Shown here: piece by piece, positions 20,332 to 59,335 of the stretch
How positions within the stretch are numbered: the stretch's first letter is position 1
Layout of the letters: each line of letters opens with the position of its first letter
Source: a virus
IMG/VR virus record: IMGVR_UViG_3300048591_000348
Span: 1-64,000 of that record
Reading direction: 5' to 3' (one strand)
DNA: 64,000 nt
Notes under the pieces: generated by a model
What the model was told of the DNA's origin: nothing
The model's database searches: none
Seen by the model: the letters and a program-made list of their open reading frames with translations, nothing else
Translations under genes and position numbers: made by a program

Positions 20332-22056
20332 TTAAGCATCGCTGTAGTCCTGCACTCGGTAGCTCTCGAAGACGGCCGCCGGCAGCGGATTCATGTCGTA
20401 CACTCGGGACATGGCATCGATCAGATCGTCGTGAGCGGAGAAGGGGAAGAACGCGAACTCGAGGAAGAACTCGCGCACGAGATCATACAGCTTGCCGTCC
20501 TCGTTCTTTCGACGGAGCGGCTGCATAAGGCGCCAATGCTCGCCGGCCTGCTGCACGCGACGCTCTTCCCTGTGCAGATTTGGATACGGCCTGTAATTGA
20601 TTTGCTCCGATCCCTCGTCGACGCTCCAGGCTGCGCTTTTCGCGCCGTCGGCTGCGGACGGATGCCAGACGCGCGCCGGAATGAAGAAGCCGCCTAGCCG
20701 GAAGTCAGGCTCCAGGCGCTCCACTCTGAATTTCTTGCTCTCTCGCCCCACCTGCCCAGTCCAATTCAGCTCGGTGATCGAGAAGTGATGCCCGTCGACT
20801 CGCATCTGCTCTGCAAAATACTCGTCGTCCGATTGCTGGCCGAAGCGCTCGTATCCGACAGAAACAGTCTGGACTCCCGGCATCGTCGACCATCTCTTGT
20901 GCAGCTCGGAGAGACGCTTCCATCTTTCGGAGAGCGGCATTCGATGGCAGTACCCGTCGAGCAAGTATTTATTGCTATTCGGATCTATGCCGATCACAAC
21001 GAGCGCTGTCCGATCGCTCGTCGCACTCCTGCCGCGCGATGGATCGCCCATGATATAGACGTTCATCATCGACGGGCGCACCCAGTACGGGCGCAGCCAT
21101 GACGTTCTGAACATATTCTCCCGGCCGGCGATCGGATTCTGTAGGAATTGCGCCGCGATCGTCGATCGCATCTCCTTCTTGGCCGTCTCCCAAGCCTCCG
21201 CCGAAAGAAAGACCGGGCTTCCCTCCAGCGTGCCATCATCCGTCGCTGGATGCAGTCTCGGCTTCGCGACACCGTTCTCGATCAACTGGCCGTAGCTATC
21301 GGCGTAGTGATACCGCGTGCCTACCATTCGCCGCCGCGTCTTCTCGCCAATCCCGATCGGGAACGAGAGTTCGGTCCGCTCCGTCGCCTTGGCGATTTGC
21401 TCGGGGTTTGTGACGTTTCGCTCAGTGATGATGTCGTCGTAAAACAGGAATGGAAAGTGTTTCCCGGTGGGCAGCGCGTCGATCAGGCCATGCGCCTCGA
21501 ACGTCGCCTCGCGGAAGTTGCCTTGTCTCCGTATGATCAGCCCGTTGTCGAGCGACCACATCGAAGACTCTACTCTAGGATTTTGATATAGAGCGTCTGC
21601 ATAAGTCTTCTTCAGCGCCTCGTTGCCCTCAAGCTCATCTTTGATTTGCTGCAAGAACGGCCGTGCCAGGCTCTTGTTGTTGGAAAATATACAAATGCGC
21701 GTCTCGGGATCGACAAGGGCTTCCTGGATCGCGCCGGCGAATGTGGCTAAACTACTCTTGTAATGATACCGACTCCACAAATCCAAGTGGCCGTCCGGTT
21801 CGATCTCGATCTCCCGCGCGCGATCATAGATCCACGGATGGATGCCATCGATGCGATTCAGGAGTCCCGTGAACAAAAAGAACCTGTCGTTGCAGCCCAA
21901 CAGCGCCAGCTCTGCGGGCTGTAGCCTCGGCACCGCCGCTGCGTAGAACTCCATCGCTTCCGAGAATGAAAGATACGGGAGTTTGTTCGTAATCAGAGAT
22001 ACGAGACTAGGACTCGCGCCTTTGGCGTAGCGCTCTGCGCGCAAAGGGCGGGACAC
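20332..22056 (-). CDS. terL: Terminase large subunit
   Basis: Variant Walker A SRYHYKSS, Walker B LFYDD, MVGTRYH, nuclease IMGDPS...DRTA and HDDLIDA. Confidence 0.92.
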   Translation of the reverse strand: MSRPLRAERYAKGASPSLVSLITNKLPYLSFSEAMEFYAAAVPRLQPAELALLGCNDRFFLFTGLLNRIDGIHPWIYDRAREIEIEPDGHLDLWSRYHYKSSLATFAGAIQEALVDPETRICIFSNNKSLARPFLQQIKDELEGNEALKKTYADALYQNPRVESSMWSLDNGLIIRRQGNFREATFEAHGLIDALPTGKHFPFLFYDDIITERNVTNPEQIAKATERTELSFPIGIGEKTRRRMVGTRYHYADSYGQLIENGVAKPRLHPATDDGTLEGSPVFLSAEAWETAKKEMRSTIAAQFLQNPIAGRENMFRTSWLRPYWVRPSMMNVYIMGDPSRGRSATSDRTALVVIGIDPNSNKYLLDGYCHRMPLSERWKRLSELHKRWSTMPGVQTVSVGYERFGQQSDDEYFAEQMRVDGHHFSITELNWTGQVGRESKKFRVERLEPDFRLGGFFIPARVWHPSAADGAKSAAWSVDEGSEQINYRPYPNLHREERRVQQAGEHWRLMQPLRRKNEDGKLYDLVREFFLEFAFFPFSAHDDLIDAMSRVYDMNPLPAAVFESYRVQDYSDA

Positions 22057-23170: not shown

Positions 23171-23869
23171 TCAGTGCATCTTGTTTGCAGGCTTGCCCTT
23201 GGCGGCGCTGCCTGCGAACCGCGCGGCGACTTCCGCCAGATGATCCTCGCCCGTCGCCTGCGGGATCTGGGCGGTTTCGATCGGACCGCCATCCTTCCCG
23301 GTGTGCTCCATTGCGACACGATCGCCATAGATTTTCGGGAGCGCCTTGGAAAGCAGCCACTTGCGCGTGTCGATGCGGATGCGCGTGCGCTCCAGCGACT
23401 CTTTCCGCGGGACCAGCCGCACGCTGCCATCCTTATCAACGGTCTCCATGTAGTCGTTCACAGAATTGTCCGCGATATCAACGAGCTGATCCGCCATCCG
23501 CAAATAGCCGACCTCCCGCGCGCGCACGTATTGATTGCTGAACGGATGGGCCGGATTTGACGCCCATCCCAGCACTGCGTCTTCTCGCGGCATGCCTGGC
23601 CGCTTGCAGATAGACGTCAACGTGTGCCCTCGAGAGAGCATCTTGCAGAGTGCTTTGCCGAGCGGGATTGAGTACAGCGTGCGGCGCTTCCTGCGCTTTG
23701 CTGTCGTCTTTTTTTTCGCCGCGATCTCCGCTGCCGGCACGATTGGCGGAGTGATCTCGGCCTTAGTCTCCTCGAGATCCTTGCCTTCCGATCGAGCTTC
23801 AGCGCGGGCTGCGGCCCGCTTGATTGCTTCGGCGGAGACTTTTGGTGCTTTTGCTCTGCGTGATGCCAT
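23171..23869 (-). CDS. terS: Terminase small subunit
   Basis: GHTLTSICKRPGMP...YVRARE...IDTRKWLLSKALPKIYGDRVAMEHTGKDGGPI. Confidence 0.88.
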   Translation of the reverse strand: MASRRAKAPKVSAEAIKRAAARAEARSEGKDLEETKAEITPPIVPAAEIAAKKKTTAKRRKRRTLYSIPLGKALCKMLSRGHTLTSICKRPGMPREDAVLGWASNPAHPFSNQYVRAREVGYLRMADQLVDIADNSVNDYMETVDKDGSVRLVPRKESLERTRIRIDTRKWLLSKALPKIYGDRVAMEHTGKDGGPIETAQIPQATGEDHLAEVAARFAGSAAKGKPANKMH

Positions 23870-24490: not shown

Positions 24491-24570
24491 CCCCCCTTTT
24501 CAGTGAATGGTGGCCTCACGATCGCTTCTGGCCTGCGGTGCGCTGATTGCGGCTGTGATACTCGGTGAAC

Positions 24571-24605
24571 AAAAAAGGCCGCAGGCTGTGATTTGCCTGC
24601 GGCCT
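24571..24605 (-). terminator. Terminator in the leader of the late operon
   Basis: AGGCCGCAGGC-loop-GCCTGCGGCCT followed by TTTTTGTT. Confidence 0.75.
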
Positions 24606-24698
24606 GCGACGACACGCGCGTCGCGCTCATTCTATAAATCAATATACGTGCGGCGCGGGCAAAACGCTAGCTGATGCAATTGCGCATATTGTCGCACC

Positions 24699-24902
24699 CT
24701 ATCTTTGCCTCGCCGCGGCGGCGCACCGCGCCTCTATCGTCGGAGACGTCCCGCCCGGCGACCTTGCATACTCCGCCCGGACGCACTCCTGGTACGGAGA
24801 GAAGTAGATCCAGAGACCTACGCCAGCGAGAATCGCGCTGGCAAGGATAAGGCTCTCGGCAACACGACTATCCATTCGGACCGCCTTTCGGGAGATAGCC
24901 AA
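24699..24902 (-). CDS. Small single-TM protein
   Basis: Hydrophobic LILASAILAGVGLWIYF and two Cys. Confidence 0.5.
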   Translation of the reverse strand: MAISRKAVRMDSRVAESLILASAILAGVGLWIYFSPYQECVRAEYARSPGGTSPTIEARCAAAARQR

Positions 24903-25172
24903 TAGACTTAAGATGCGCGATCAGTATGCGATCCACATAAGATGCCACTGAGCGACCGTCCTCCTTAGCCGCCTTCTCGACGGCCGCTTTCGTGGCTTCT
25001 GTCACTCTGATTGAGATAGCGGACGATTTGGCCATGTGTGCACTTTATTGCAATTGACGTTCATTTGCGTCGAGCGCAATATAGTGACAGTTGCACACAA
25101 ATGCAACGGGCTGAAGAAAGTGAGATCAACACTTTCTCCAGCCCTAACCACAGCGGCCGATCGGAGATCGCC

Positions 25173-25547
25173 ATGGCTGATAGCAACCATACCATCGTTC
25201 AATCCATATCCGAATCTGTAATCAGGGCAGACGCCACGCTCGCGGCAATAAAACAACTGCCATTCGTCCGAGACGCGACGCGTGCCGAGCGCGCAGCCGG
25301 AATGCCGGGGCGCAAATTCTGGGCCGTCGCATCGACTGGGGACTACGCTGCCGATCGCCGTGCCGGTCAGCAGTTTGCTCGCGAGGCATTGGCATTCATG
25401 GTCGCTCACGACTTCCCGGCGCTGCTCGGATGGATCGTGCGGGACATGTGCGCCGAGGATGATGATCGTCACCTGGGCGCAGTCGAGTGCGGCTTCCTGT
25501 CCGCCATCGCCCGCCAGGCCATCGGCGGCGCGCACGCACTTGATTAA
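25173..25547 (+). CDS. Hypothetical protein; paralogue of the C-terminal domain of 50712-51488
   Basis: GGAG RBS; shared FW..TGD..D..G...W.VRD...VE.GF motif; upstream TTGACG-17-CAATAT. Confidence 0.7.
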   Translation: MADSNHTIVQSISESVIRADATLAAIKQLPFVRDATRAERAAGMPGRKFWAVASTGDYAADRRAGQQFAREALAFMVAHDFPALLGWIVRDMCAEDDDRHLGAVECGFLSAIARQAIGGAHALD

Positions 25548-25574
25548 TATTTTGCGCCTCAATATATGGAGCGC

Positions 25575-25787
25575 ATGGCGAACCAGAACGCGAACAACAA
25601 TCCTCGGGGGCCAGGCCGCCCGAGGATTGCGCCGGCAGATGAGTCGGCCCAAATCAACCTGAGACTCACAAAGACCCAGCTCGATTGGCTGTCAGACGAG
25701 TCTCGGCGGCAGGGGCAGTCGGGGCGGACGGCGGTCATTCGTCGCCTAATCGACGACGCGATGGCTACCTACGGCCGGAAGAGATAG
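25575..25787 (+). CDS. Ribbon-helix-helix DNA-binding protein, probably leaderless
   Basis: GPGRP..QINLRL....DWL......GRTAVIRRLID; TTGATT-17-TATATG ends 6 nt before the ATG. Confidence 0.8.
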   Translation: MANQNANNNPRGPGRPRIAPADESAQINLRLTKTQLDWLSDESRRQGQSGRTAVIRRLIDDAMATYGRKR

Positions 25788-25823
25788 ACAAAAAAGCGCA
25801 ATTATCACGATTTTGTGATCAAT

Positions 25824-25868
25824 GTTCTTTTGTTGTTCTGTTTTGGGGCTCATAAACTATGGTATAAT
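25824..25868 (+). promoter_or_regulatory. Alphaproteobacterial LexA (SOS) box beside an extended -10 promoter
   Basis: GTTC-TTTTGTT-GTTC at 25824-25838; TGGTATAAT at 25860-25868. Confidence 0.75.
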
Positions 25869-26025
25869 GATTCTCAAGACGCGACGATCGGGATGCCCAA
25901 GCGCTGGACGCAAGGACTTCTGACCGACGAGCGCAGGGAAACGGCTCGCATTGTTCCTGGGCACCTCCCTAATTGAGACCGATCCCTGTGACGTGGGGCT
26001 ACCTACGGCACAGGGAGTGAGAGAC

Positions 26026-26307
26026 ATGGCACGACGCAAAGCTGTGCAGTCTGGCAACGCGGTGACGACGCAATCGGCATCGTGGAAAAGCCTTCTCGGG
26101 GCCGTCGCTTTCGGGCGCGGGTTCAAGGAGGTGCACGCCGGCCTGCCCTTCAATTCTGACGCCATCGAGTCGCGATGGCATTGGCACTACGAGCGCGGGC
26201 GCCTCTTCGGTGTGGTCTACAAGGGCCAACTCAAGGAGGGGCGCACGGTTCTCCGGGCGGCAATCTACGCCGCTCAGATCGCCTACCGCGACAAGGTGTT
26301 CACCTAA
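26026..26307 (+). CDS. Small hypothetical protein (cassette 1)
   Basis: AGGGAG RBS, MARRKAVQ; YERGR motif. Confidence 0.7.
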   Translation: MARRKAVQSGNAVTTQSASWKSLLGAVAFGRGFKEVHAGLPFNSDAIESRWHWHYERGRLFGVVYKGQLKEGRTVLRAAIYAAQIAYRDKVFT

Positions 26308-26392
26308 TGCCGAGGCCCTTCGGGGCCTCACCTCACAGGGATCGGTTGACCATCGCCTTCTGCGTGAGGCTTCACGCTAGGAGGACTGGGAA

Positions 26393-26710
26393 ATGAACGT
26401 CATCGACGTAACGATCAATGATCGTGAAATTCCGGCCGGCAAGGTCTTGATCGCCAAGAGCAAGCCCGAGGGCGAGCCTTTCGCCAGAGAGCACGAGCTG
26501 GACAGCAAGATCGGCTGGAAGAACTCGGATCTGGGGCGCCCTCGGCAAGTTCGGCTGGTAGGCCGGGTTGCTGGGTGGAACCTCGCCGGGTCGATGCTGC
26601 GGTGGGACAATGGCGCTTACGGCGTCATCTGGGACATCGACGGATCGAGGCACGGTCGCTGGTACAAGAAGTTCGAGGAAGCGGTCGAGCACTTCAATCG
26701 CATCCCTTGA
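26393..26710 (+). CDS. Small hypothetical protein (cassette 2)
   Basis: AGGAGG RBS. Confidence 0.7.
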   Translation: MNVIDVTINDREIPAGKVLIAKSKPEGEPFAREHELDSKIGWKNSDLGRPRQVRLVGRVAGWNLAGSMLRWDNGAYGVIWDIDGSRHGRWYKKFEEAVEHFNRIP

Positions 26711-26799
26711 ACCTCCGAGGCCCATACGGGCCTCACCCCGAAGGCGATGAATATCCCATCATTCCATGAGGGCATCCTGCCCTTCGGAGGGAATGACAA

Positions 26800-27147
26800 A
26801 TGCAAACATTGTCTTTGAGGCTGACGCATTCCTACGTCGGGACATGGCAGCACCTGGACAAGTGGGAGGGTCTGGGCTCGATCGATGAGATCGGCTCAAG
26901 AGAACTCCCGCTGAACGAGGAACAGGAGAACGATCACTGCGAGCCGAAAGGCCGCGAAGTGTTCTGCCTCGTCACTTCGGAAGCCGAGGATGCGAAGATC
27001 ATCTGCGCGCTTCACGACACCTACACCCAATGGGGTTGCTCGCACGAATACGACTGCTGCGGCTGCCGGAGCTACACGGCTCAGGACGTCAAGCGGGTGA
27101 CGGGCAATCTCTGGCGGGTCGAGGTCTGGTCCTCTCGGAACTACTAA
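26800..27147 (+). CDS. Small Cys-rich hypothetical protein (cassette 3)
   Basis: GGAGG RBS; CSHEYDCCGC putative metal site. Confidence 0.75.
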   Translation: MQTLSLRLTHSYVGTWQHLDKWEGLGSIDEIGSRELPLNEEQENDHCEPKGREVFCLVTSEAEDAKIICALHDTYTQWGCSHEYDCCGCRSYTAQDVKRVTGNLWRVEVWSSRNY

Positions 27148-27235
27148 CCTCCAAGGCACCCGGCAACGGGTGTCCTCATGGGATGATGGGAAATTCCCCG
27201 AGACCTTCGCTGGCAGTGAGCCGACGCGGAGGAAG

Positions 27236-27445
27236 ATGATGACCAGGGACAAGGAATTGAACCTGATCTGGAAACACACGCACCCGGACTTTCGCGGGAA
27301 GATCGACGGCAAGCGATACGTCCTATGCTGGATTGAAGGCAGCGGGACATGCAGCGTGCCACTCGAAAGCCTTCCCGAGAAAGAGCACCAATCAAAGTTG
27401 GGCTACGCTCAACGACGGGAGGCGCGGGGCGAGCGCGGATACTGA
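27236..27445 (+). CDS. Small hypothetical protein (cassette 4)
   Basis: GGAGG RBS; IWKHTHPDFRG. Confidence 0.7.
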   Translation: MMTRDKELNLIWKHTHPDFRGKIDGKRYVLCWIEGSGTCSVPLESLPEKEHQSKLGYAQRREARGERGY

Positions 27446-27535
27446 TTATGGGTTGCCCGGGAGACCGGGCTGCCTGCCAAGGTCTCGGGAAACTGTGCCT
27501 CCTGATGGGCGATCCTGCCCTACCGGGAGAGCGAC

Positions 27536-27649
27536 ATGGCCAAGTTTCACTTCATCGCCGTTCCGCTGATCAAGATCGAGCGCGGCCCCTACTGGGGACG
27601 CGGCAGCCCGGACGTTGTTGCCGTCCCTGCGAACAAACTGCAACCCTGA
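27536..27649 (+). CDS. 37-aa peptide (cassette 5)
   Basis: GGGAG RBS; MAKFHFIAVPLIKIERGPYWGRGSPDVVAVPANKLQP, read manually. Confidence 0.45.
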   Translation: MAKFHFIAVPLIKIERGPYWGRGSPDVVAVPANKLQP

Positions 27650-27759
27650 GCCTACTGGCCCGCCCCGAGAAATCGGCAAGCGGGGCTGAGGTGGTAGAGA
27701 CAGAGGCGCGGCGGCTAAACGTCACCCGCAATGACGACTAGCACAGGGAGACAGATGAT

Positions 27760-28068
27760 ATGGCCGGCAAGCCCTCAATCCCCGCGGGCGTGCATCGTCG
27801 CATCCGGCAACTCCACTCTCGCGGCATGACGCAGAGCGCCATTGCCGAGGCCGTCGGATGCTCAAGATATACCGTGTGCAAGGCGATCAATCCGGATTTC
27901 GCGGAGCAAGAGCGGCAACGTCACCGCCGCATGGGCCGCGATCGCTATGTCGCCCGGAAAGACGATCCCGACTATATCTCTTATCAGAGTGCCTGGAACA
28001 CCACGCCAGAGCGGCTGCGCAAAGTGCGCGAGGGCATGCGGCGACTCCGGAAATCCAGACAGGCATGA
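27760..28068 (+). CDS. HTH protein (cassette 6)
   Basis: GMTQSAIAEAVGCSRYTV; AGGGAG RBS. Confidence 0.75.
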   Translation: MAGKPSIPAGVHRRIRQLHSRGMTQSAIAEAVGCSRYTVCKAINPDFAEQERQRHRRMGRDRYVARKDDPDYISYQSAWNTTPERLRKVREGMRRLRKSRQA

Positions 28069-28209
28069 GCACGCCCATCAGGGCAATCCTCGCCTCCCAG
28101 CCGAAAGGCCGCGGGAGGCGAAGCGCGTAGAAGACCATGAAACTAACAGAGGCCGGTTGCTGGCTAGAGCGACCGGCCTCCTTGTGCGCGTCGAGACGGA
28201 GCACTCAGG

Positions 28210-28380
28210 ATGCACCCATATCTCTACACGCTGGAAGTATTCCGTAACGGAGAGTGGATCGTTGTCAAGAGCGGGCTTTCCGCAACTCTCGCTGCCTTTG
28301 GATCAGCACTAGCGATGCTCAAAGAGCCGGGAGAACTGTGGAGAGCTGTTAGAGAGGACGGCGACGTTTTCTACCCGTGA
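28210..28380 (+). CDS. 56-aa hypothetical protein (cassette 7)
   Basis: GGAG RBS; MHPYLYTLEVFRNGEW..., read manually. Confidence 0.55.
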   Translation: MHPYLYTLEVFRNGEWIVVKSGLSATLAAFGSALAMLKEPGELWRAVREDGDVFYP

Positions 28381-28459
28381 CCAATGCGTGAGCTTGTAAG
28401 GAATGCTTACAGGTTCGTCCCGCGCGCCCTGCCAGCGACAACAGCAGGAGAAAGCGCCC

Positions 28460-28594
28460 ATGCCCGACATCACGATCAAACGGTATGACGGATGGTGGTA
28501 TTGCCTCGTGAATGGCCAACGCGAACGCTTTGGCTATTCGACGGTCGCAGGCGCCATAGATCGGTACTACGCGATCGTAGAAGGCTGGATCTGA
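28460..28594 (+). CDS. 44-aa hypothetical protein (cassette 8)
   Basis: AGGAG RBS; MPDITIKRYDGWWY. Confidence 0.6.
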   Translation: MPDITIKRYDGWWYCLVNGQRERFGYSTVAGAIDRYYAIVEGWI

Positions 28595-28793
28595 CCGGCT
28601 GGGCGAGGCTTTCGGGCCTCACCTCGCTCGCAGGGCGCGCGGGATTTTTTGCAAAGGCCGAAACCATTGCCATCCGGCTGTGGTCGCGGAGTAATTCTCC
28701 GCCTGAAGATGGCCACTTTAGATCGACACCGGCCCACCTCGGGCCTCGGTGCGGCAAACACCGAGAGGTGGGCCAGAGTCAAGACTGATCACA

Positions 28794-29867
28794 ATGCACA
28801 CATCTAGCACACGATGGCGAATCTCGCCACTGGGGTGGATCGCGCTATCCCTCGGGATCGCGGCCGAATCCGCCTCAAACGCGCTCCGAGCCTACGGGCT
28901 TGGTGCGTTCCTCGATCGCTTCGCGGTACACATCCAGGGGCACACGGTCTCGCTTGCGGGGTCCGTCCTAGTGCTGGCCGCCATCGCGATCTCACTCGCC
29001 CAGGCCAGAGCGGCCTGGGTCGCGCTCTCCCCAGGGCGCCCCATCAGTCAGCGTATCGTAGCGGGCTTCGCAGCCGCACTACTCGTCTCGATCTCGATCA
29101 CGGCCCTTGCTTCTCATGTTCTCGATGCGCAACGAGCCAAGGGCGGTAGAGAGACAGCGGCCAGTCAATCGTACAGTAGAGCGAAGGCTGCGCACGACAA
29201 AGTCGTCGCCGAAATGCAATCGCTTGGCGAGACGCGTCCAGTATCCGTGATCCAGGCCGAGATTGCCTCGGCCCAGATCGACATGGTTGTGTGGCGTCGA
29301 TCGGCCCAATGCAGTGACATCAGTCGCGAGGACACAAAAAAACTCTGCGGGCCAATCCTCACGCTTTACAAGGAGCGTGGCGCCGCCGCACGCAAGCTCG
29401 AGCTTGAACCCGAAGTCGCGCATCTGCGGGAACAACTCTCAAGCATGACGCCGCCCGTCGAAGCCAAGACGGCTTCGGAGGAAGCGATGTCCATGTGGTG
29501 GGCGTGGATCATGGGACTCGGCGTGGTGTATCTCGCCACATTCGGATCCGTGATTTACGCCAACGAAGTAACAGTCACAGAGCGGGAGCTTCCAAACCTT
29601 CCGCCACCGCCCTCAGCAAAGATCGTGGAAGACGACAGCCCGCCATCCGGCGGCGAATGCCGTCCGAAGACGAGAGAGGAAGCACTCGCCGACCTGCGGC
29701 AGCTTCTGAAGGCGGGACACAGCCCGCCGTCTCAGGAGTGGCTTAGGGCGCGCTGGCAGGTGGGCTCAAAAGGCACGGTCTCAAAATGGCTTCGCCTTTG
29801 GGAGGACACTGCTCAGATGCCGGGGAGCCGGATGGTCGAAGGGCGCTGCAAGACCGTAGTCGCGTAA
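28794..29867 (+). CDS. Multi-TM coiled-coil protein with C-terminal HTH-like domain
   Basis: Three N-terminal TMs, coiled coil, fourth TM, PSQEWLRARWQVGSKGTVSKW. Confidence 0.7.
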   Translation: MHTSSTRWRISPLGWIALSLGIAAESASNALRAYGLGAFLDRFAVHIQGHTVSLAGSVLVLAAIAISLAQARAAWVALSPGRPISQRIVAGFAAALLVSISITALASHVLDAQRAKGGRETAASQSYSRAKAAHDKVVAEMQSLGETRPVSVIQAEIASAQIDMVVWRRSAQCSDISREDTKKLCGPILTLYKERGAAARKLELEPEVAHLREQLSSMTPPVEAKTASEEAMSMWWAWIMGLGVVYLATFGSVIYANEVTVTERELPNLPPPPSAKIVEDDSPPSGGECRPKTREEALADLRQLLKAGHSPPSQEWLRARWQVGSKGTVSKWLRLWEDTAQMPGSRMVEGRCKTVVA

Positions 29868-29874
29868 GCATTAG

Positions 29875-29908
29875 GGCCGCCACGGGAAACCGTGAGCGGC
29901 CTTTTTTT
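29875..29908 (+). terminator. Rho-independent terminator
   Basis: GGCCGC-CACGG-GAAA-CCGTG-A-GCGGCC followed by T7, at a convergent junction. Confidence 0.85.
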
Positions 29909-29929
29909 GTTTCTGCCAGCGCGACATGC

Positions 29930-30481
29930 CTACGCCGCCCTAACAGCCGCTCCCACCGACCCATCGAGGTCGCGGTCGATCGTTGCCAGCGCCCGCCGGA
30001 TCCTCACAATAGACGCCAAACTCGCGTTCGGCTTTGTCGCCACTCTGATCCGCTCGTCGGACCATCCCTTGGCATAGACGTACCGGCCCGTTTTGATTTG
30101 CCCATGACGCATCAGCAGCAGCGTCGCCTTCGCACAGTCGACGTTCGTGAGGCGAGCGGATCTCGATCCCCTGGTAGTCGGCGGTTGCTCCGCAAGATCC
30201 GGGAACAAATCAATCGTCTCGGATGATTGCAGCATGGATTCCGCCTCGGCCTTGTCCGCCCCGATCTTGCGAAGCGCCCGCCGCACGCGACCAACAACCC
30301 CAGCGACGTCATGCTTCGACGCAGAGCGACTGAAATAAACACGCTCGACAGCCTCGCCCAGCGCAAGAACCGCTTCGCCTGCGCGATCCGACGTGCGCCA
30401 TGATAGCGTCACGCCGAGAGGAATGTACCGAGATATCTCACTCGTTATCGCGTCGCGGATCTTGCGTTCGGCAGCGAGCAT
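29930..30481 (-). CDS. Hypothetical protein
   Basis: TAATG-coupled to the MTase beta ORF. Confidence 0.55.
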   Translation of the reverse strand: MLAAERKIRDAITSEISRYIPLGVTLSWRTSDRAGEAVLALGEAVERVYFSRSASKHDVAGVVGRVRRALRKIGADKAEAESMLQSSETIDLFPDLAEQPPTTRGSRSARLTNVDCAKATLLLMRHGQIKTGRYVYAKGWSDERIRVATKPNASLASIVRIRRALATIDRDLDGSVGAAVRAA

Positions 30482-32639: not shown

Positions 32640-32967
32640 TCTCCCCTCCCCTTGCCTTGGCGAGAGCGGTCTCTGCATTTTTCCAGACGTCTCGTAATTC
32701 GTCAGGAACTTCGCCGCCCTTCGCAAGCTGCCAATTCCTATATGCTAGGCATCCGCGAAGCGCTTCTAGAAGCTCAGGCGCGGCAGCCACGAGAGACGCA
32801 TTTGCCTCGCCTTCCGGATACGCTTCGCATTCAATCTCGACGACGACTTGGGCAAGGCCGTAATGCCTGCGAGGGCCATCTGGCGATGAGATGCCGATGT
32901 AACCGGGGGCGGATTCGCAACCCGAATCCAGGCGCCATGGCCCTGGCGTATATGCTGCCTTCTTCAT
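32626..32967 (-). CDS. Conserved phage hypothetical protein
   Basis: TPGPW...ANASLVAAAPELLEAL; its start codon lies inside the IS target TTCAT. Confidence 0.8.
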   Translation of the reverse strand: MKKAAYTPGPWRLDSGCESAPGYIGISSPDGPRRHYGLAQVVVEIECEAYPEGEANASLVAAAPELLEALRGCLAYRNWQLAKGGEVPDELRDVWKNAETALAKARGGEIERS

Positions 32968-33431
32968 CAAGAGTTCTCCTGCCGGATACCCCGGCGTTTA
33001 GGCCGGGGAGGAGGCAGGCCCCCGCCCGTGCCGCTTGCTCTCTGCTGTTCCACGTACTGGCGGATGATCGAGATCGGGGCGCCGCCGCACGATGCCGCGA
33101 AGTAGCTGGCGCTCCAAAGGACGCCCTTGACGTACCTCCCACTAATCTCCGGCCGCATGCGGCGCAGACGATAACTCGACGCACCTTTGAGGCTGTTGAC
33201 CAGTTTGGAGATGGAGACCTTGGGCGGATACTCGACCAGGAGGTGCACGTGGTCGTCCTCGCCGTCGCACTCGATTAACTTGGCCTCAAAGTCCCGGCAG
33301 ACCTTCGCGAAGATTTCCCGAAGGTCTCGGATGGCCAGATCGCTCAGCACGTCGCGGCGGTATTTCGTGACGAAGACCAGATGCACATGAAGCGCAAAAA
33401 CACAATGTCTGCCGGTTCGATATGGTTGCAT
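32967..33431 (-). CDS. tnpA: Y1 HUH transposase
   Basis: HLVFVTKYRR, DHVH (HUH), LVNSLKGASS, LWSASYF, YVEQQ. Confidence 0.95.
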   Translation of the reverse strand: MQPYRTGRHCVFALHVHLVFVTKYRRDVLSDLAIRDLREIFAKVCRDFEAKLIECDGEDDHVHLLVEYPPKVSISKLVNSLKGASSYRLRRMRPEISGRYVKGVLWSASYFAASCGGAPISIIRQYVEQQRASGTGGGLPPPRPKRRGIRQENS

Positions 33432-34552
33432 GATGCCCTCAGACCAGATAGAATTGAGGCCATGATGCTCACCTACAAATACCGGGTCAAGGACGCATCG
33501 ACGAAGCGTTGGCTTCGTCGATATGCGTGGGCATCCAACCAAGTCTGGAACTACTGCAACCAGATCCAGCGCGAGGCTGAAACGAGATGGAAGGCCGGGC
33601 GCGCTTCTCGATGGCCGAGCGCATTCGACCTGATCAAACTTTGCACCGGAAGCGGCGCTGATCTCGGTCTGCATTCCGACACCGTCCAGACCATCTGCCG
33701 GGAGTACGCTGCGAAGCGTGATGCCAACCGAGGGCATCTGCGCTGGCGCGCAAGCGGCGGCCCGAAGCGGTCGCTCGGATGGGTTCCGTTTATCCCGCGC
33801 GCCATAAAAGTCGACGGGGATTGCGTCCGTTATCTTAAGCGCAACTTCCGTTTCTGGAAATCCCGCGAAATCGGCGGCGTGATCAAAGCCGGGGCGTTCG
33901 TCGAGGATGCGCGCGGGCGCTGGTATGTCTGTTTTCAGTGCGACGTCGCGGATGATTTGCCGACCGGCACGGGCGAGATCGGCATTGACCTCGGACTCAA
34001 AACGCTTGCCGTCTGCACCGATGGAACCGACGTCCCCGCGCTTCGCCACTATCGCCGTTATGAGGCCCAACTTGCCGTTGCTCAGCGCGCCAAGAACAAA
34101 CGCCGTGTCCGCTCGATCCACGCCAAGATCGCCAATGCTCGGCGCCATCACCTTCACGAAGCGAGCACGAAGATCGCTCGCGAAAACGCACTCATCGTCG
34201 TCGGCAATGTGAACGCGGCCAAACTCGCAAAGACTCGGATGGCTAAATCCGTGCTCGACGCGAGTTGGTCGATGTTCCGGAACATGCTCGAATACAAGGC
34301 CAGAAGGCACCGAGCACGTTTTATCGAAGCCGACGAACGATGGACGTCCCGAACGTGCTCGAACTGCGGGACCATTCCCGACAGTAGTCCGAAAGGTATG
34401 GGCGCGCTCGGAGTAAGACACTGGGTTTGCTCTGGCTGCGGTTGCTCGCATGATCGCGACGTGAATGCTGCTCGGAACATTCTTAGGGTCGGGGCGGAAC
34501 GTCGCCCTCCAGCCGTGGAAATCCCCGTCCTTTAGGGCGGGGAAGACGTTAA
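32968..34552 (+). mobile_element. Complete IS200/IS605-family element (divergent tnpA/tnpB), inserted 3' of TTCAT
   Basis: Left hairpin CCCCGGCGTTTAGGCCGGGG; right hairpin CCCCGTCCTTTAGGGCGGGG then AAGACGTTAA; no target duplication. Confidence 0.92.
33462..34535 (+). CDS. tnpB: RNA-guided endonuclease TnpB
   Basis: TYKYR, GIDLG (RuvC-I), TSRTCSNC...CSGC Zn finger, DRDVNAARNI (RuvC-III). Confidence 0.95.
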   Translation: MMLTYKYRVKDASTKRWLRRYAWASNQVWNYCNQIQREAETRWKAGRASRWPSAFDLIKLCTGSGADLGLHSDTVQTICREYAAKRDANRGHLRWRASGGPKRSLGWVPFIPRAIKVDGDCVRYLKRNFRFWKSREIGGVIKAGAFVEDARGRWYVCFQCDVADDLPTGTGEIGIDLGLKTLAVCTDGTDVPALRHYRRYEAQLAVAQRAKNKRRVRSIHAKIANARRHHLHEASTKIARENALIVVGNVNAAKLAKTRMAKSVLDASWSMFRNMLEYKARRHRARFIEADERWTSRTCSNCGTIPDSSPKGMGALGVRHWVCSGCGCSHDRDVNAARNILRVGAERRPPAVEIPVL

Positions 34553-34803: not shown

Positions 34804-35081
34804 GGTATGCTCCGCCTTTGCTTCTCGAGATCTCGCTCCGATCGTTTAATCAGCAGATACCTGATGCGATCCAGTGCGTGCTCAATGCACTTTGACCTGG
34901 CCGCTTCCCGTGTGAACTTGTTGCCGCGAACGACGTTGCCAATGCCTACAACTCCCTCGCTGTTCTTCAGCACGACTACAACAGCGTCTCCGATCACAAT
35001 CTCTGTTGCCTCGGCGATGTGATATTTCGCGAGGAGGCGATCTTCGGATAGGATCGATTCGACCGAATGCGGAGTCAGCAT
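34800..35081 (-). CDS. Hypothetical protein
   Basis: ORF in the operon. Confidence 0.55.
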   Translation of the reverse strand: MLTPHSVESILSEDRLLAKYHIAEATEIVIGDAVVVVLKNSEGVVGIGNVVRGNKFTREAARSKCIEHALDRIRYLLIKRSERDLEKQRRSIP

Positions 35082-35362
35082 GCGCCCCCCCTCCCCTCAC
35101 TGAGCGGCCGCAAGCTCTTTGTCTCATCGTCGAACATGAAATACTCGAATAGAGGCTTAATTCGCCTGGTGACGACAATGCTCCTGCTCCTCGCCGGTAC
35201 GAATGTGAGGTAGTCCTGCTCTTGGAGCGCCGCCAGAATCGTGCTAATTCCGCTTTTGCTGGCCAGACCCAGGAACTTCTGGATCTCACCGTAGGACACT
35301 TGATGGCCTGCGGACTGCCGCTCCTGAACAAAGATCAATACTTTTCGCTGAACCCTCGTCAC
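35075..35362 (-). CDS. LexA DNA-binding-domain-only protein
   Basis: TRVQRKVLIFV...SYGEI...LASKSGISTILAALQEQDYL...PARSRSI matches the alpha LexA wHTH; no peptidase domain. Confidence 0.8.
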   Translation of the reverse strand: MTRVQRKVLIFVQERQSAGHQVSYGEIQKFLGLASKSGISTILAALQEQDYLTFVPARSRSIVVTRRIKPLFEYFMFDDETKSLRPLSEGRGGAC

Positions 35363-37772: not shown

Positions 37773-38060
37773 CTAGGCGAGCGCTCCCTCTCCCTCGGCC
37801 CAGACTTTGCCGAGCGGCGTGTCGTCGCCCATGCGGAGCGCGTGGAGATAGGTGGCGAGAACCGCCTCCTCTTCATCGCGCTCGGTCTTTGACTTGCGAC
37901 GCAATCCGAGAACCTTTCGGATGATCTTGGGATCGAACCCTTCCGCCTTCGCCTCAAGCAGCTTGTCCCGAAAATCGGCGCTGAGGGCTTGTCGCTCCTC
38001 TTCGATCCGCTCCAGCTGCTCGATGAATTGGCGAAGTTGTGCTTGGGTTGAGGCTTGCAT
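37773..38060 (-). CDS. gapR: GapR-like nucleoid protein (DUF2312)
   Basis: QLRQFIEQLERIEEER...EAKAEGFDPKIIRKVL.LR...EEEAVLATYLHAL. Confidence 0.92.
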   Translation of the reverse strand: MQASTQAQLRQFIEQLERIEEERQALSADFRDKLLEAKAEGFDPKIIRKVLGLRRKSKTERDEEEAVLATYLHALRMGDDTPLGKVWAEGEGALA

Positions 38061-38987: not shown

Positions 38988-39608
38988 TCATGCTGAAGCC
39001 TCATCGAACATACCTGCCTGATCCCCGAACGACTCCCATGTGGGCCGTGTTTCGCGCGAGAACACATCGGCAGCCCGTCCGAACGGAATGAGTTGGCGTG
39101 CCATCTCATAGGCTTCATCGGGCTTCCGAGAGTGCTCTCTTGCCCTCGCCAGGATTGCTGATCGCACGGATTTCGACTGCGTTCGGATCCGGCCAATCTT
39201 TCCGATCAGAAACAGCTCGTGGGCCCCTCGCAGCACATAGCCAGTACCGAAGCCGACTTTCCCATTCTTCGTCGTCTTCACCCATGCGCCACTCGTGACG
39301 AATTTGAAGCCCCAATCCTCCAGTATTCTGATCTGCTGCTGGATCCCCGGTGCGGTGCACCACATCCACAAAAGCATGCCGTCCTTGTGGGCGAGATCTT
39401 TCACCGGCAATGCCGCGATCTCGTCCATCGTCATGGTTCGATACTTGGCTTGCGGTGACTTCCCACATCCTTTCTCAGAGAATGTTCGAAAGCGCCATGC
39501 GGGATCGATCATCGCGAGCGAATATGCACCAGGCTCAAGGTCACCGAACGGCCAGTTCGGAAAGCGACAGTCTTCACTGAAGAGATCTTCCTGGCGCAGA
39601 TCGATCAC
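38988..39608 (-). CDS. MT-A70 family adenine methyltransferase
   Basis: IDPAW, LWMWCT, WGF, WVK, GTGYVLRGAHE, REHSRKP, FSR, FGDQ. Confidence 0.93.
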   Translation of the reverse strand: MIDLRQEDLFSEDCRFPNWPFGDLEPGAYSLAMIDPAWRFRTFSEKGCGKSPQAKYRTMTMDEIAALPVKDLAHKDGMLLWMWCTAPGIQQQIRILEDWGFKFVTSGAWVKTTKNGKVGFGTGYVLRGAHELFLIGKIGRIRTQSKSVRSAILARAREHSRKPDEAYEMARQLIPFGRAADVFSRETRPTWESFGDQAGMFDEASA

Positions 39609-40672
39609 TCTGCATGCTCCATCACGTCCAGCAGACCACCGCGATCCCTGCCAAGCCGTCGCTCGGCCATAGCTGCGTATTCAGGGTTCAGCTCGATAAG
39701 GATCGCATTCCTCTGCAGCCGATCAGCTACAAGGGCCGTCGTTCCTGACCCGCCAAAGGGATCGAGAACCATCCCTCCCTTCGGACAACCGGCCTTGATA
39801 CAGATTTCTGGTAGCTCCGGTGGAAACGTTGCGAAGTGGGCTTCAGCAAATGGGGCTGTGGCAATCGTCCAAACTGAGCGCCGGTTGCGCCCATTTGCCA
39901 TTTGCTCTGCCCTTCCCATGGAATCCCATCGCTCGTTGAACCCTTGATGTTTCCTCTCGTGGCCTCGCCGGCGCTCGGGCAATTTTATGGTCTCATTCTT
40001 ACCGACGCGCTTGTTGCCTATTTGGGTGCGTGGCCCAGGTGTGCCACCGACATAGGATCCGCCACGAAAACCCATGGCGTCTTCGTTGCCTGAGCGCATC
40101 TCACGGACAGCATCGGCGTCGTAGAAGTAGCGCTCCGACTTTGTCATCAGGAACACGTACTCGTGTGATTTCGTGGGTCGATCGCGAATGCTTTCCGGCA
40201 TTGGATTCGGCTTTGACCAGATGATGTCAGACCGCAACCACCAGCCGTCATCCTGAAGCGCGAACGCGAGACGCCATGGCAGGCCCATCAGGTCTTTCGG
40301 TTTCAAACCCGGTGTCCGCTTAAGACTTCCCGTGTTAATTCCCCTTGGCGCCGCGTAAACTTGTCTACCACTGAGCTTCGATGCTGGACCGGGCGTTTCT
40401 CCGCGCGATTGCGCGCCCCATGATCCTGCGTAGGCATCGCCGTAATTGAGCCAGAGTGTGCCATCCGCGCGCAGAACACGGCGGATCTCGCCAAACACCG
40501 CAACAAGCCGATCGATATGCTCAAGCAGAGTTGGTTCACTGCCAATCTGGCCTTCAACGCCATAATCGCGCAGACCCCAGTACGGCGGGCTCGTCACGAC
40601 GCAATGCACCGACTCGCTGGGCAACTGGCGCAGACCGTCCATAACGTCGGCTTGAATAATTCTTACGGTCAT
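39605..40672 (-). CDS. Beta-class N4/N6 DNA methyltransferase
   Basis: TSPPY, IIWSKPNPMPES, HFATFP, LDPFGGSGTT. Confidence 0.95.
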   Translation of the reverse strand: MTVRIIQADVMDGLRQLPSESVHCVVTSPPYWGLRDYGVEGQIGSEPTLLEHIDRLVAVFGEIRRVLRADGTLWLNYGDAYAGSWGAQSRGETPGPASKLSGRQVYAAPRGINTGSLKRTPGLKPKDLMGLPWRLAFALQDDGWWLRSDIIWSKPNPMPESIRDRPTKSHEYVFLMTKSERYFYDADAVREMRSGNEDAMGFRGGSYVGGTPGPRTQIGNKRVGKNETIKLPERRRGHERKHQGFNERWDSMGRAEQMANGRNRRSVWTIATAPFAEAHFATFPPELPEICIKAGCPKGGMVLDPFGGSGTTALVADRLQRNAILIELNPEYAAMAERRLGRDRGGLLDVMEHAE

Positions 40673-42079: not shown

Positions 42080-43246
42080 TCAGAACTTAATCCTTACGCC
42101 AGCCATTCCAACGGATGCGTCCAGGCCGCCGCCGATGTCGTATGACCGATACGAAACGAACGCATCGAGAGCCGCAGCGTCGATGCTCTGCACGATGCCG
42201 AGCCCCCAGAAGTCAGAGTCGACGTTCGCCGTCTTCAACTGATGGTCCGCGTACTCGGCATAGACCGCCGTGTTTCCCATGCCGAAGAAGTTGCGAGACA
42301 GGCCGCCACGGAGATGCCACATCTGAATATCGCCCCAGAGAGGGTGATCATCCTGGTGGCCGCCGGCGACATTGAGGAACACGCCAGTTGCGACATGCAG
42401 CATCGAGATGGACCCGGTCAGAGTCTTCATGTCGCTCATGCCGAACCCGTCGAGATTCTCGACGCGGTAGCCAAGCCCAGCAGCGAGCCGCACGCCACCG
42501 AACTCGCCAGCGTAGCGCAACGCAACGTCATAGAGATCGTCCCCTGACGCTGTCTGACCGCCGCCCCAAGACGCCGACCCCTTGAAGCCGGCAAGCTCTG
42601 GCGTGTCGTACCGAAGGACTTCCGCTCGTCCGCCGTCGAAGCCAACGGGATTGACGATTCCGAGCCCAATTCCGGGGAGGCCGGAATAGGTCCACATCGG
42701 CTCGGCCGAGAGCGGCAGGGACGCGATGTTGGTGTTAGAGAGATCAATCTCAGCGATCCCGTCCGTCGCCGTCGATGTCCGGCCAATGCTGACGCGGCCG
42801 ACGGAAGAATCCAACCACGCCACCGAGTGGCGTACGGTCATGTCGTTAACCATGCTGCCGGCGCCGAGCAGGCCGCCCGCAGTTTCGTCGATGCCCAGCT
42901 CGATCATGAACCCGGCCTTCATTGTCGGACTGATCGTCGCCTCCCCTGAGAAGCGAAGCTTGGTGCCGCTGTTGGGGTTGTCGATGATGCGCCCCTTGCC
43001 GTCACCGGGCAAACCGCTTAGATCGTTCCACAAAATTGCTTTGCTGACCTCGCCGGAGATCGTCAGCCTGACCTTGCGATTGCCCTTCCTGGCGACGGTC
43101 GCCTCGAGCTCTGCCACGCGCTCTTCGAGGTCCGCGCAGCAATCCCCCCCGAGGTCGGCGGCCTTCGCCGCGGGCATGTAGGCGTATCCGCCAATCGCGG
43201 CGGCGGCGGCGATACCACCGCCGATCAGCCAATTCTTCATAGCCAT
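42080..43246 (-). CDS. Outer-membrane porin (Hyphomicrobiales type)
   Basis: Signal peptide AKA-A, ADLGGDCCADLEERVAELEATVARKGNRKV, RYDTP, amphipathic strands, terminal Phe. Confidence 0.92.
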   Translation of the reverse strand: MAMKNWLIGGGIAAAAAIGGYAYMPAAKAADLGGDCCADLEERVAELEATVARKGNRKVRLTISGEVSKAILWNDLSGLPGDGKGRIIDNPNSGTKLRFSGEATISPTMKAGFMIELGIDETAGGLLGAGSMVNDMTVRHSVAWLDSSVGRVSIGRTSTATDGIAEIDLSNTNIASLPLSAEPMWTYSGLPGIGLGIVNPVGFDGGRAEVLRYDTPELAGFKGSASWGGGQTASGDDLYDVALRYAGEFGGVRLAAGLGYRVENLDGFGMSDMKTLTGSISMLHVATGVFLNVAGGHQDDHPLWGDIQMWHLRGGLSRNFFGMGNTAVYAEYADHQLKTANVDSDFWGLGIVQSIDAAALDAFVSYRSYDIGGGLDASVGMAGVRIKF

Positions 43247-43346
43247 GTTGGTTTGGTCCCTGATGGGCAGCATTACGCTTGCACGCGAACGCACCACTGG
43301 CCGCTGTGGCCATTAATCGAAACGATTCGTAGCGCTAGATATGTAT

Positions 43347-43977: not shown

Positions 43978-44469
43978 TCAAGGATTGATGATGATTTCGC
44001 CGGACGCGTTGATCGAGCCGTGGATTGATTTGGGCGCCGACTTCGATGCGCGAGCTGTAGATGGAGACGGAGATGGAGACGGAGATGGAGGCGGAGGCGG
44101 AGCGGGCACCCTGTCTCCCCCCACGCCAGCGAGGATTGCTGTGGCGACCTCTTCCATACGAGCCATGTACGTCCCGCGAACGCCGCCCTGCTGAATCAAT
44201 TTCTCTGCGGCTCTGAGACCCGACGTCACCGTCGAATGATCTCGTCCGCCCAGCGCGCGCCCGATCCGAACATGCCCCAGCCCCTCGCGCTTCGCGATCC
44301 TCATCACTACGAACCTGGCGGAAACGACGTCTTGCGACTTGCCTTCCCCGAGCAGGATTGATTTTTCGATATGGCTGGCCTTCGCCACGGCGCCGATGAT
44401 CTGCTGCATGAGCAACGCGCGGATCTGTCCCGGCTTTGTGTGAGGCTGTGCAATGCGATCGTTTTCCAT
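43978..44469 (-). CDS. DnaA domain IV (C-terminal HTH) protein
   Basis: VVSARFVVM.......IGRALGGRDHSTV. Confidence 0.88.
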   Translation of the reverse strand: MENDRIAQPHTKPGQIRALLMQQIIGAVAKASHIEKSILLGEGKSQDVVSARFVVMRIAKREGLGHVRIGRALGGRDHSTVTSGLRAAEKLIQQGGVRGTYMARMEEVATAILAGVGGDRVPAPPPPPSPSPSPSPSTARASKSAPKSIHGSINASGEIIINP

Positions 44470-50282: not shown

Positions 50283-50855
50283 ATGAATCGAATATTGGAG
50301 CTTCGGCGGGCGGCCGGATTGAGCAGAAAGCAGCTCGGCGACGCGGTTGGCGTCGAGCAAAACACCATTCGTCGGTACGAGACAGGAGAGATCAGCATAT
50401 CTCTTGATATGCTCCAAGCGATTGCGACCGCACTGCGGTGCGACGTTGCGGATCTTATAGCGAGCGACGGCGGCCTTGAAGACGACGTTGCACTGGAGAT
50501 CCCGGCGTTTGGCATGCTGGCGATCACATCGGCGATAGGCAGGCGGGGGCTGAAGATTTATCGGGTACTTACCGATGTCCTTGCAGACGCTGACATAAGG
50601 CGGAGTCATCGGCTGCTCGTCGACGAGAGTAACGAAGCGTGCTCGGCCCGCAAGGCCGGTGACGCGCTGGTTTTGCGCATATCGACGGGGCCACTCCTGT
50701 TGCGGCAATACCTACCGCCTCACCTTCTCGTCACGAACAGGTTTGGCGTCGACAACTCCACCCTCAAGCTGAACGATCGGACGCTGCGCGTCGACGTCGT
50801 TGGCATTGTTATTGAGCCCATAATCGACGGCGGCATCTCCGATACCGCCCACTGA
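50283..50855 (+). CDS. CI-like repressor 2 (XRE HTH plus degenerate S24 domain)
   Basis: RILELRRAAGLSRKQLGDAVGVEQNTIRRYETG; VLTDVL and LLRQ replace GDSM and KR. Confidence 0.85.
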   Translation: MNRILELRRAAGLSRKQLGDAVGVEQNTIRRYETGEISISLDMLQAIATALRCDVADLIASDGGLEDDVALEIPAFGMLAITSAIGRRGLKIYRVLTDVLADADIRRSHRLLVDESNEACSARKAGDALVLRISTGPLLLRQYLPPHLLVTNRFGVDNSTLKLNDRTLRVDVVGIVIEPIIDGGISDTAH

Positions 50856-59334: not shown

Positions 59335-59335
59335 A

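Follow-up and report, generated by a model that had tools for sequence, protein, structure and literature searches.

Small phage genes individually bracketed by private long inverted repeats: a candidate cassette array in an alphaproteobacterial phage genome

Organization of the small-gene array

The stretch of DNA considered here (the window) is the first 64 kb of IMGVR_UViG_3300048591_000348, a 79,919-bp IMG/VR record of a phage genome with a 127-bp terminal repeat. In this window eight small open reading frames (ORFs), named g1 to g8, follow each other on the + strand with long structured spacers in between. The strongest signal of the locus, which had not been seen in the first-pass annotation of this DNA, is a set of inverted repeats bracketing g1 to g4 and g8, one gene at a time. 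The pairing of these brackets is non-random, position-specific, recurrent in two related arrays and maintained by compensatory change, and the units are exchanged between relatives either from arm to arm or as the ORF alone.

The eight ORFs encode products of 37-115 aa, are preceded by sequences resembling ribosome-binding sites (Shine-Dalgarno sequences), and show the codon bias typical of the genome, with a high GC content at third codon positions. Together with g9 they are as follows:

26026-26307, + strand: g1, 93 aa, no family match; bracketed
26393-26710, + strand: g2, 105 aa, conserved family of unknown function; bracketed
26800-27147, + strand: g3, 115 aa, phrog_20892 (function unknown); bracketed
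27236-27445, + strand: g4, 69 aa; bracketed; N-terminus 96% identical in the related contig L083
27536-27649, + strand: g5, 37 aa; unbracketed
27760-28068, + strand: g6, 102 aa, small helix-turn-helix (HTH) protein (HTH_23 and HTH_7, both above cut-off); unbracketed
28210-28380, + strand: g7, 56 aa; unbracketed; 65% identical homologue in the related contig L084
28460-28594, + strand: g8, 44 aa; bracketed; 40% identical homologue in L084, unbracketed there
28794-29867, + strand: g9, membrane protein, also conserved in relatives; final gene of the transcription unit

The gaps from g1 to g8 measure 85, 89, 88, 90, 110, 141 and 79 nt. The array of about eight tiny genes with spacers that had been described earlier is therefore confirmed, with eight ORFs and seven gaps of 79-141 nt. 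Elsewhere in the genome intergenic gaps are typically of -4 to +14 nt, and the long gaps are specific to the array.

Among the array ORFs family matches were obtained only for g6 (HTH) and g3 (phrog_20892). The AlphaFold2 model of g2 (pLDDT 87) consists of a beta-sheet and a C-terminal helix, and its comparison with the PDB gave no convincing structural relative (Foldseek E >= 0.5; VIA Z <= 5.0 over 56-66 residues, with a root-mean-square deviation of 3.0-3.2). The model of g3 in the ESM Atlas is of low confidence and offered no usable lead. It had been proposed that these genes encode antirepressor, anti-defence or host-takeover peptides; no ORF matches an antirepressor or anti-defence family, the fold of g2 is unmatched, and nothing speaks for or against these two roles.

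Long-range brackets around individual genes

A repeat search over 24800-30000 returned as its top hits five long inverted repeats, each spanning exactly one ORF:

25978-25999 (5' arm, in the leader) and 26325-26346 (3' arm), + strand: g1 bracket, 20/22 Watson-Crick pairs
26351-26370 (5' arm, containing the anti-Shine-Dalgarno sequence CCTTC) and 26730-26749 (3' arm), + strand: g2 bracket, 18/20 Watson-Crick pairs
26749-26777 (5' arm) and 27168-27196 (3' arm), + strand: g3 bracket, 25/29 Watson-Crick pairs and 3 G-U
27194-27216 (5' arm) and 27470-27492 (3' arm), + strand: g4 bracket, 20/23 paired
28418-28438 (5' arm) and 28624-28644 (3' arm), + strand: g8 bracket, 20/21 paired

The five stems, each of about 20 bp or more and enclosing one unit, have 18-25 Watson-Crick pairs and span 185-390 nt. 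Their geometry is regular, with arms of 20-29 nt, the 5' arm ending upstream of the Shine-Dalgarno sequence, at 19-26 nt from the start codon, and the 3' arm beginning 17-29 nt after the stop codon, just behind the post-stop hairpin or overlapping it. Each arm pair is private in sequence, and the arms of neighbouring cassettes abut. If the brackets of the related contigs L084 and L085 are added, the 11 brackets have arms of 20-34 nt, placed 11-30 nt before the start and 13-29 nt after the stop.

For each of the 96 called genes, the 110 nt on the upstream side were scored by local alignment for their complementarity to the 110 nt on the downstream side, with empirical and shuffled nulls. Ranks 1 to 5 of 96 were taken by g3 (48.5), g1 (38.5), g8 (37.5), g4 (31.5) and g2 (31.5); the sixth-ranked gene scored 24.5 and the median of all genes was 17. 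Moreover, when every gap was compared with every other, pairing was found only between the successive gaps 0-1, 1-2, 2-3, 3-4 and 7-8; in 300 trials the shuffled null had a mean of 16.7 (standard deviation 3.0) and did not exceed 30.5. The local-alignment test was preferred to RNAduplex on whole gaps and to a global minimum free energy (MFE) fold of 2.8 kb, both of which were swamped by non-specific long-range pairs. In local folds the base-pair probability of the stems was 0.92 for g3 and 0.93 for g8; those of g1 and g4 formed in part (0.5-0.7) and that of g2 was weak. We are highly confident that the bracket pairing has been selected.

Hairpins behind the stop codons

The sequence motifs quoted in the first-pass annotation, namely a promoter element, a box and the hairpins at 26312, 26717, 27155, 27455, 27665, 28149 and 28605, are all present where they had been placed. 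The structures that follow the stop codons are:

26312-26329, + strand: post-g1 hairpin GAGGCCC-TTCG-GGGCCTC, its 3' half overlapped by the g1 3' arm
26717-26734, + strand: post-g2 hairpin GAGGCCC-ATAC-GGGCCTC
27155-27175, + strand: post-g3 hairpin GGCACCCG-GCAA-CGGGTGTC
27455-27492, + strand: post-g4 hairpin GCCCGG-GAGA-CCGGGC, then the g4 3' arm
27659-27685, + strand: post-g5 hairpin with CCGA-GAAA-TCGG
28089-28180, + strand: very stable local structures of gap 6, including the 13-bp hairpin GAGGCCGGTTGCT/AGCGACCGGCCTC at 28149-28180
28390-28416, + strand: post-g7 hairpin with an 11-bp stem
28605-28650, + strand: post-g8 hairpin GAGGCT-TTCG-GGCCTC, then the g8 3' arm, then T6
29873-29907, + strand: intrinsic terminator after g9, a GC stem followed by TTTTTT (-24.9 kcal/mol, the most stable post-stop fold of the genome)

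A hairpin had been said to stand at the start of every gap. Seven of the eight gaps do open with a stable hairpin. The one at 28149, however, lies 80 nt after the g6 stop and not directly behind it. The recurrence of a GAGGC..GGCCTC hairpin is also borne out, since GAGGCY..GGCCTC occurs in three copies, all on the + strand and all in the array (0.25 in shuffles), with no other copy in the 79.9-kb genome. When the 40 nt after each stop codon were folded, seven of the eight array genes fell within the top 15 of 96 (Mann-Whitney p = 1.2e-4). The gaps themselves fold with z = -2.3 to -6.2, the exception being gap 5 (z = -0.6), and gap 6 reaches -75.3 kcal/mol (z = -6.2). Ahead of g1 the reported structured leader of about 150 nt is present, with a fold that proved to be weak (z = -1.9).

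As already remarked in the first-pass annotation, a U-run is found in the last gap only. A GC hairpin with a U-run, taken as the mark of an intrinsic terminator, occurs only at 28627-28643 (with T6) and at 29873-29907, and the post-stop hairpins of g1 to g7 do not qualify. Since the terminator after g9 has a U-tail, this host-phage pair would use U-tailed terminators and the U-less hairpins would be something else. No Rfam family was found at E <= 1 in 24500-30200, and a search of IMG/VR for the hairpin motif gave 24 unrelated contigs with a single copy each.

Conservation and exchange in related phages

Three contigs carrying a close copy of g2, namely L083, L084 and L085, were obtained from a scan of metagenomes. 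The g2 family counts 17 homologues, and Logan contigs hold g2 homologues at 71-79% identity. In L083 and L084, whose g2 is 93% identical, the array gaps are of 50-117 nt. The first four genes of L084 are all bracketed (scores 31.5-38.5) and three of these four are unrelated to genes of the window, while L085 (g2 72% identical) has two bracketed genes with scores of 37 and 32.5. Distant homologues of g2 and g3 are placed in tightly packed operons and have no brackets; those of g3 were found in 40 viral contigs that share no other array gene.

The g2 cassette offers the opportunity to follow the paired sequences through evolution. Its post-stop hairpin remains complementary in the homologous positions, being GAGGCCC/GGGCCTC here, GAGGCGC/GCGCCTC in L084 and GGAGCCGC/GCGGCTCC in L085. 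The two sides of the hairpin have thus changed together. In the long g2 stem seven of the 20 pairs have changed on both sides among this phage, L084 and L085, and 91.7% of the cells are still paired. With the partner slid by 1-3 columns 35-45% of the cells paired and double changes were almost absent, and none of 500 shuffles reached the same level of covariation. Compensatory substitutions, as would be expected of a processing stalk, are thus found in the g2 stem, the remaining stems being without informative homologues.

The exchange of genes is best seen in slot 4. No difference separates L083 from L084 until the start codon of this slot is reached; L083 then continues with g4 and L084 with an unrelated ORF of 60 aa, and identity to the window resumes at the post-stop hairpin and the 3' arm. 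The arms are about 95% conserved in L084 and the ribosome-binding site is also the same. The same post-stop hairpin is thus observed behind different ORFs in relatives, a search for hairpins of this kind having been suggested earlier. The g3 unit, for its part, is replaced from arm to arm in L084. The proposal that the hairpins are points of cassette exchange stands as far as gene content varies and swaps are seen; it has to be amended in that the units run from arm to arm and not from hairpin to hairpin. Gene content varies between relatives; it is the folded scaffold that is conserved.

Homologues of g9 mark the equivalent genomic position in distant relatives, both in viral contigs and in prophages. 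In most of the prophage relatives the g9 homologue directly follows a divergent promoter, and in the contig L047 four other small genes are inserted ahead of it. For these reasons the array can be regarded as a variable insertion site. In L047 (9026-9940; also in L048 and L049) each of the four successive gaps before the g9 homologue holds a hairpin whose loop, CTGCAA, is conserved and whose stem differs in sequence from the others. Each of these hairpins is placed 20-35 nt upstream of GGAGG. They are not present in the array of the window, and have the look of a site recognised by an RNA- or DNA-binding factor.

Further searches were of limited yield. The arms of slot 4 had no matches in IMG/VR, single-sequence scans of IMG/VR gave one match for TerS and none for g2, and the g2 profile was not found in the 401 genomes of the host's order that were searched.

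Possible role of the brackets

The explanation that we favour, to which we give somewhat better than an even chance, is that the array is a hot-spot for accessory-gene cassettes in a regulated operon of a temperate phage, with the mRNA looping out each bracketed cistron. The promoter region at 25804-25868 would drive g1 to g8 together with the conserved g9, and the transcription unit would end at the terminator at 29873-29907. Each cassette would comprise, in this order, the 5' arm, the Shine-Dalgarno sequence, the small ORF, the GC-rich tetraloop hairpin after the stop codon and the 3' arm. In g1 to g4 and g8 the arms would form a private long-range helix of 20-29 bp, each cistron thereby lying in its own loop and successive helices abutting.

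That the helices act at the RNA level is, in our opinion, fairly likely. A specific cutting by RNase III, to which the comparison with ribosomal RNA points, is plausible at somewhat less than an even chance. The analogy is drawn because each helix, with a length of about two turns, closes off one unit within a polycistronic RNA. The helices could serve as double-stranded targets for RNase III of the host, as do the stalks that leader and trailer form around 16S and 23S rRNA, and cutting each of them would release monocistronic mRNAs with 3' ends protected by the post-stop hairpin, a GC tetraloop hairpin being a classic 3' protector. Alternatively, the closing helix might insulate folding, in such a way that a newly acquired ORF could not disturb the ribosome-binding sites of its neighbours.

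Several observations weigh against this explanation. No bracket of g5, g6 or g7 appears in the gap-by-gap pairing matrix, and the homologue of g8 in L084 is unbracketed as well. The covariation is based on three sequences and one stem, and the MFE fold of the whole block recovers the g3 stem only. Mismatches in the stems (7 G-T vs 5 A-C) do not favour a + strand RNA, and no phage-encoded RNase III was found. Furthermore, the more distant array of L047 uses a different module, with its CTGCAA-loop hairpins and some U-tailed terminators.

The first-pass annotation had assigned RNase III or other processing to the short local hairpins and had taken the whole array for a set of SOS-induced antirepressor or anti-defence peptides. 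The hairpins are indeed real, enriched and without U-tails, a perfect LexA-type box adjoins the promoter, and lexA genes of the host clade carry the identical motif; the phage moreover appears to be temperate and its CI-like HTH protein shows no peptidase domain, so that an SOS-controlled antirepressor would make sense. Nevertheless we consider this model unlikely. Bacterial RNase III usually needs roughly two helical turns, and local tetraloop stems of 6-8 bp are too short to be its best substrates, whereas the long-range stems of 20-29 bp fit better; the number of boxes is at chance level, the box is absent from related promoters, and matches to antirepressor or anti-defence families were not obtained. 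The structured spacers might instead set expression with no endonuclease cut, by attenuation, by blocking 3' exonucleases, by protecting the gaps from Rho, or by pairing with Shine-Dalgarno sequences so that translation is coupled or gated. In agreement with this, folding predictions leave the Shine-Dalgarno sequences mostly in the paired state (P(unpaired) 0.0-0.3), CCTCC directly after the stops of g2 and g3 can pair with the next Shine-Dalgarno sequence, and T6 follows the g8 3' arm. Blocking the g2 5' arm in silico even frees the Shine-Dalgarno sequence (P(unpaired) from 0.01 to 0.65), but this arm-dependent opening is limited to g2; g1, g3, g4 and g8 stay paired, and a switch allowing translation only after full transcription is thus seen in silico in one gene. 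Since local hairpins alone would suffice for such control, the compensatory upkeep of 20-29 bp helices spanning 185-390 nt would be left unexplained, and we hold this account, too, to be rather improbable.

It can also be supposed that the inverted repeats act in DNA, the cassettes having terminal inverted repeats that fold as single strands or recombine in the manner of attC or of PeSL mini-circles, and that pairing in the RNA merely follows from this. In T4-type phages, modules of the PeSL type are known to bring about the shuffling of ORFs and the formation of mini-circles (PMC2839356). The exchange from arm to arm, or of the ORF alone between conserved arms, would agree with this, as would the abutting arms of neighbouring cassettes and the lack of bias between G-U and A-C. 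However, all arm pairs are private with no shared core motif at the junctions, so a site-specific recombinase has no common site, and no recombinase gene, of integron type or other, adjoins the array. Homologous exchange requires direct and not inverted repeats, and inverted repeats do not promote excision. Compensatory change within the arms of one gene is what would be expected of a folded strand, and the swaps are accounted for, with no role for the arms, by homologous recombination of the ordinary kind in conserved neighbours. A recombination role in DNA is accordingly less likely, and the model as a whole has in our view a small chance of being right.

Returning to cassettes looped out in the mRNA, a broader reading can be put forward tentatively. 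Helix-bounded "gene-in-a-loop" cassettes may be an undescribed form of accessory-gene packaging in phages, serving to process or insulate each gene so that its expression does not depend on context and marking the boundary of the exchange unit, and as such an RNA-level counterpart of integron cassettes; we regard this joint reading as possible, with the greater weight against it. In a full-text search of the literature no account was found of mRNA cistrons that are enclosed one by one in long-range helices of their own. Should the helices prove to have a function, the phage could accept arbitrary foreign small genes in one operon and still express each of them reliably, an equivalent problem being addressed in synthetic biology with ribozyme or nuclease insulators, and accessory-gene mRNAs would be added to the few substrates that have long-range processing stalks of the rRNA kind. 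The arms can also be used as an annotation signal for genuine small genes and cassette boundaries in phage dark matter, and conserved slots indicate where relatives swap host-interaction genes.

Comparison with known systems

In rrn operons leader-trailer stalks around 16S and 23S rRNA are cut by RNase III. The likeness to the array lies in flanks that pair over hundreds of nucleotides, in a helix of about two turns that loops out the unit, in the possession of one stalk per unit, and in covariation. The difference is that the array encloses exchangeable small protein-coding cistrons (37-115 aa) with ribosome-binding sites, and that cleavage would here be a matter of analogy. The early genes of phage T7, with their RNase III sites R0.3 to R1.3, likewise share a single transcript, in which structured elements between the cistrons provide each product with a stabilising hairpin at its 3' end; the T7 hairpins are however local, within one gap, whereas the helices of the array would join two successive gaps across an ORF.

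A further parallel is found in the hok mRNA of type I toxin-antitoxin systems, a message of roughly 300-450 nt in which fold-back (fbi) pairing between the two ends makes the RNA more stable and controls its translation. A comparable pairing of ends would take place in the array, but hok stands alone as one gene, is accompanied by an antisense RNA and encodes a hydrophobic toxin, features that were not seen in the array.

Integron arrays resemble this locus in having promoterless small ORFs of the same orientation behind one promoter, imperfect palindromes of 60-140 nt and a variable content. The array differs in that it has no integron integrase, attI or conserved R'/R'' core, and in that its paired arms flank the ORF in different gaps, whereas those of attC lie within one gap. 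IntI or attI were not found beside the array, whose neighbours are ribbon-helix-helix (RHH)/Arc-like, HTH and unknown genes, the only integrase being 30 kb away.

The PeSL cassettes of T4-type phages consist of direct repeats, each with a strong sigma-70 promoter and a working terminator (PMC2839356, PMC4122927). They share with the array the small ORFans in a variable region, the modules of about 50-100 nt with GC stem-loops, and the insertion, deletion and replacement of ORFs at these modules. In contrast, the gaps of the array show no promoter-like site in a consensus scan of 24700-30000 and their hairpins are U-less. The array is moreover defined by private inverted repeats across each ORF, its gap modules being only weakly similar to each other (42% mean column identity, with two pairs of 25-30 nt at 76-80%). 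The boundaries of replacement do coincide with gaps and arms, though the gaps share only short similarities. By analogy, the rRNA stalks would represent the same geometry with a different cargo, the T7 sites the same purpose in a local form, and the PeSL cassettes the same evolutionary role.

Promoter region and the question of SOS control

The 81 nt between the gene gB, which encodes an RHH protein, and the leader have 32% GC, vs about 60% for the genome, and contain three elements:

25804-25819, no strand assigned: 16-bp palindrome ATCAC-N6-GTGAT, found once in the window, ahead of the array promoter
25824-25838, + strand: GTTC-N7-GTTC, perfect direct repeat and candidate LexA box, ending 24 nt upstream of the -10
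25860-25868, + strand: extended -10 TGGTATAAT, within the 81-nt AT-rich region

The description of a single promoter region beside a perfect GTTC-N7-GTTC box was correct, as TGGTATAAT and the box were both verified. The array promoter has no good -35 element, and a consensus scan found no full sigma-70 site in 24700-30000, the extended -10 at 25860 being recognised by eye only.

Three perfect boxes were found in the window, vs 2.2 expected by chance; the probability of a box within the 81-nt region is about 0.001, and two of the three perfect boxes lie in the 12% of the genome that is intergenic. The second intergenic box, a perfect one at 59487, has a one-mismatch partner 21 nt upstream (59466). 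GAAC-N7-GAAC stands upstream of three Hyphomicrobium lexA genes. The box was absent from the equivalent promoters of L084, L047, L046 and L075. The palindrome ATCAC-N6-GTGAT is kept upstream of the promoter of the g9 homologue in L047 and L075 and is likely to be a repressor operator. Control of the array promoter by LexA, or by a LexA-like protein of the phage, is from these sequences an evenly balanced matter, and no smaller probability attaches to the palindrome being the site of action of an RHH/Arc-type repressor.

The phage encodes at 35075-35362 (- strand) a 95-aa protein that has only the LexA DNA-binding domain (PF01726, above cut-off) and no protease domain. It shares 37% identity with the N-terminal part of Hyphomicrobium LexA and might bind SOS boxes without being subject to cleavage. 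Its gene clusters with those for GapR (37773-38060), MT-A70 (38988-39608), an N6/N4 methylase (39605-40672) and a DnaA domain IV protein (43978-44469). Another sequence that resembles the array operator is found in the window at 59335-59510, where a tRNA 3' fragment (likely attP) is followed by GATCGATTTTCTGTGATC; the tandem GAAC-N7-GAAC boxes, at 59466 with one mismatch and at 59487 perfect, lie upstream of an unknown 187-aa gene. A LexA-type box, a phage LexA domain and a CI-like repressor with no visible peptidase make this a testable case for damage signalling reaching a temperate alphaproteobacterial phage.

The phage and its genomic context

The genes that characterise the phage are:

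13258-15669, - strand: SU10-type portal
20332-22056, - strand: large terminase
23171-23869, - strand: small terminase
50283-50855: CI-like HTH protein, no peptidase domain visible
58192-59334: integrase, with an attP-like tRNA 3' fragment directly after it

The integrase, the attP-like tRNA fragment and the CI-like HTH protein indicate that the phage is temperate. Homologues of g9 are present in prophages of Hyphomicrobium and Hyphomicrobiaceae genomes and the phage encodes GapR, a protein typical of alphaproteobacteria; its most likely host is therefore a Hyphomicrobium-like alphaproteobacterium. No DNA similarity to phages in GenBank was found. The array belongs to a small + strand block (25173-29907) flanked by packaging genes and by a minus-strand block.

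A giant ORF is split by the ends of the record into two parts of 4,277 aa and 605 aa (window 1-1815 and genome 67085-79918, both - strand). Its product is a polyvalent virion protein with transglycosylase (SLT), inorganic pyrophosphatase (InPase), methylase-like, Sbno/SNF2-type helicase and LPD38 domains, as well as DarB-like antirestriction matches. The idea that this ORF (about 4,840 aa when joined) is an N4-like virion RNA polymerase reading hairpin promoters was rejected, its domains being those of a polyvalent virion protein.

A near-perfect inverted repeat of 15 bp at 25108-25144, in the divergent region between an Arc-like gene (24868-25035, - strand) and the gene gA, could be an operator or a bidirectional terminator. 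The phage genome also carries an IS200/IS605-type insertion element (Y1 transposase and TnpB-like gene) and a Gram-negative porin gene, at 32967-34535 and 42080-43297. In the prophage locus L079 (9399-9608) one stretch matches both gA (25173-25547, 124 aa, no family) and the C-terminal part of a DUF4118 membrane protein (50712-51521), which suggests that these two proteins share an uncharacterised domain.

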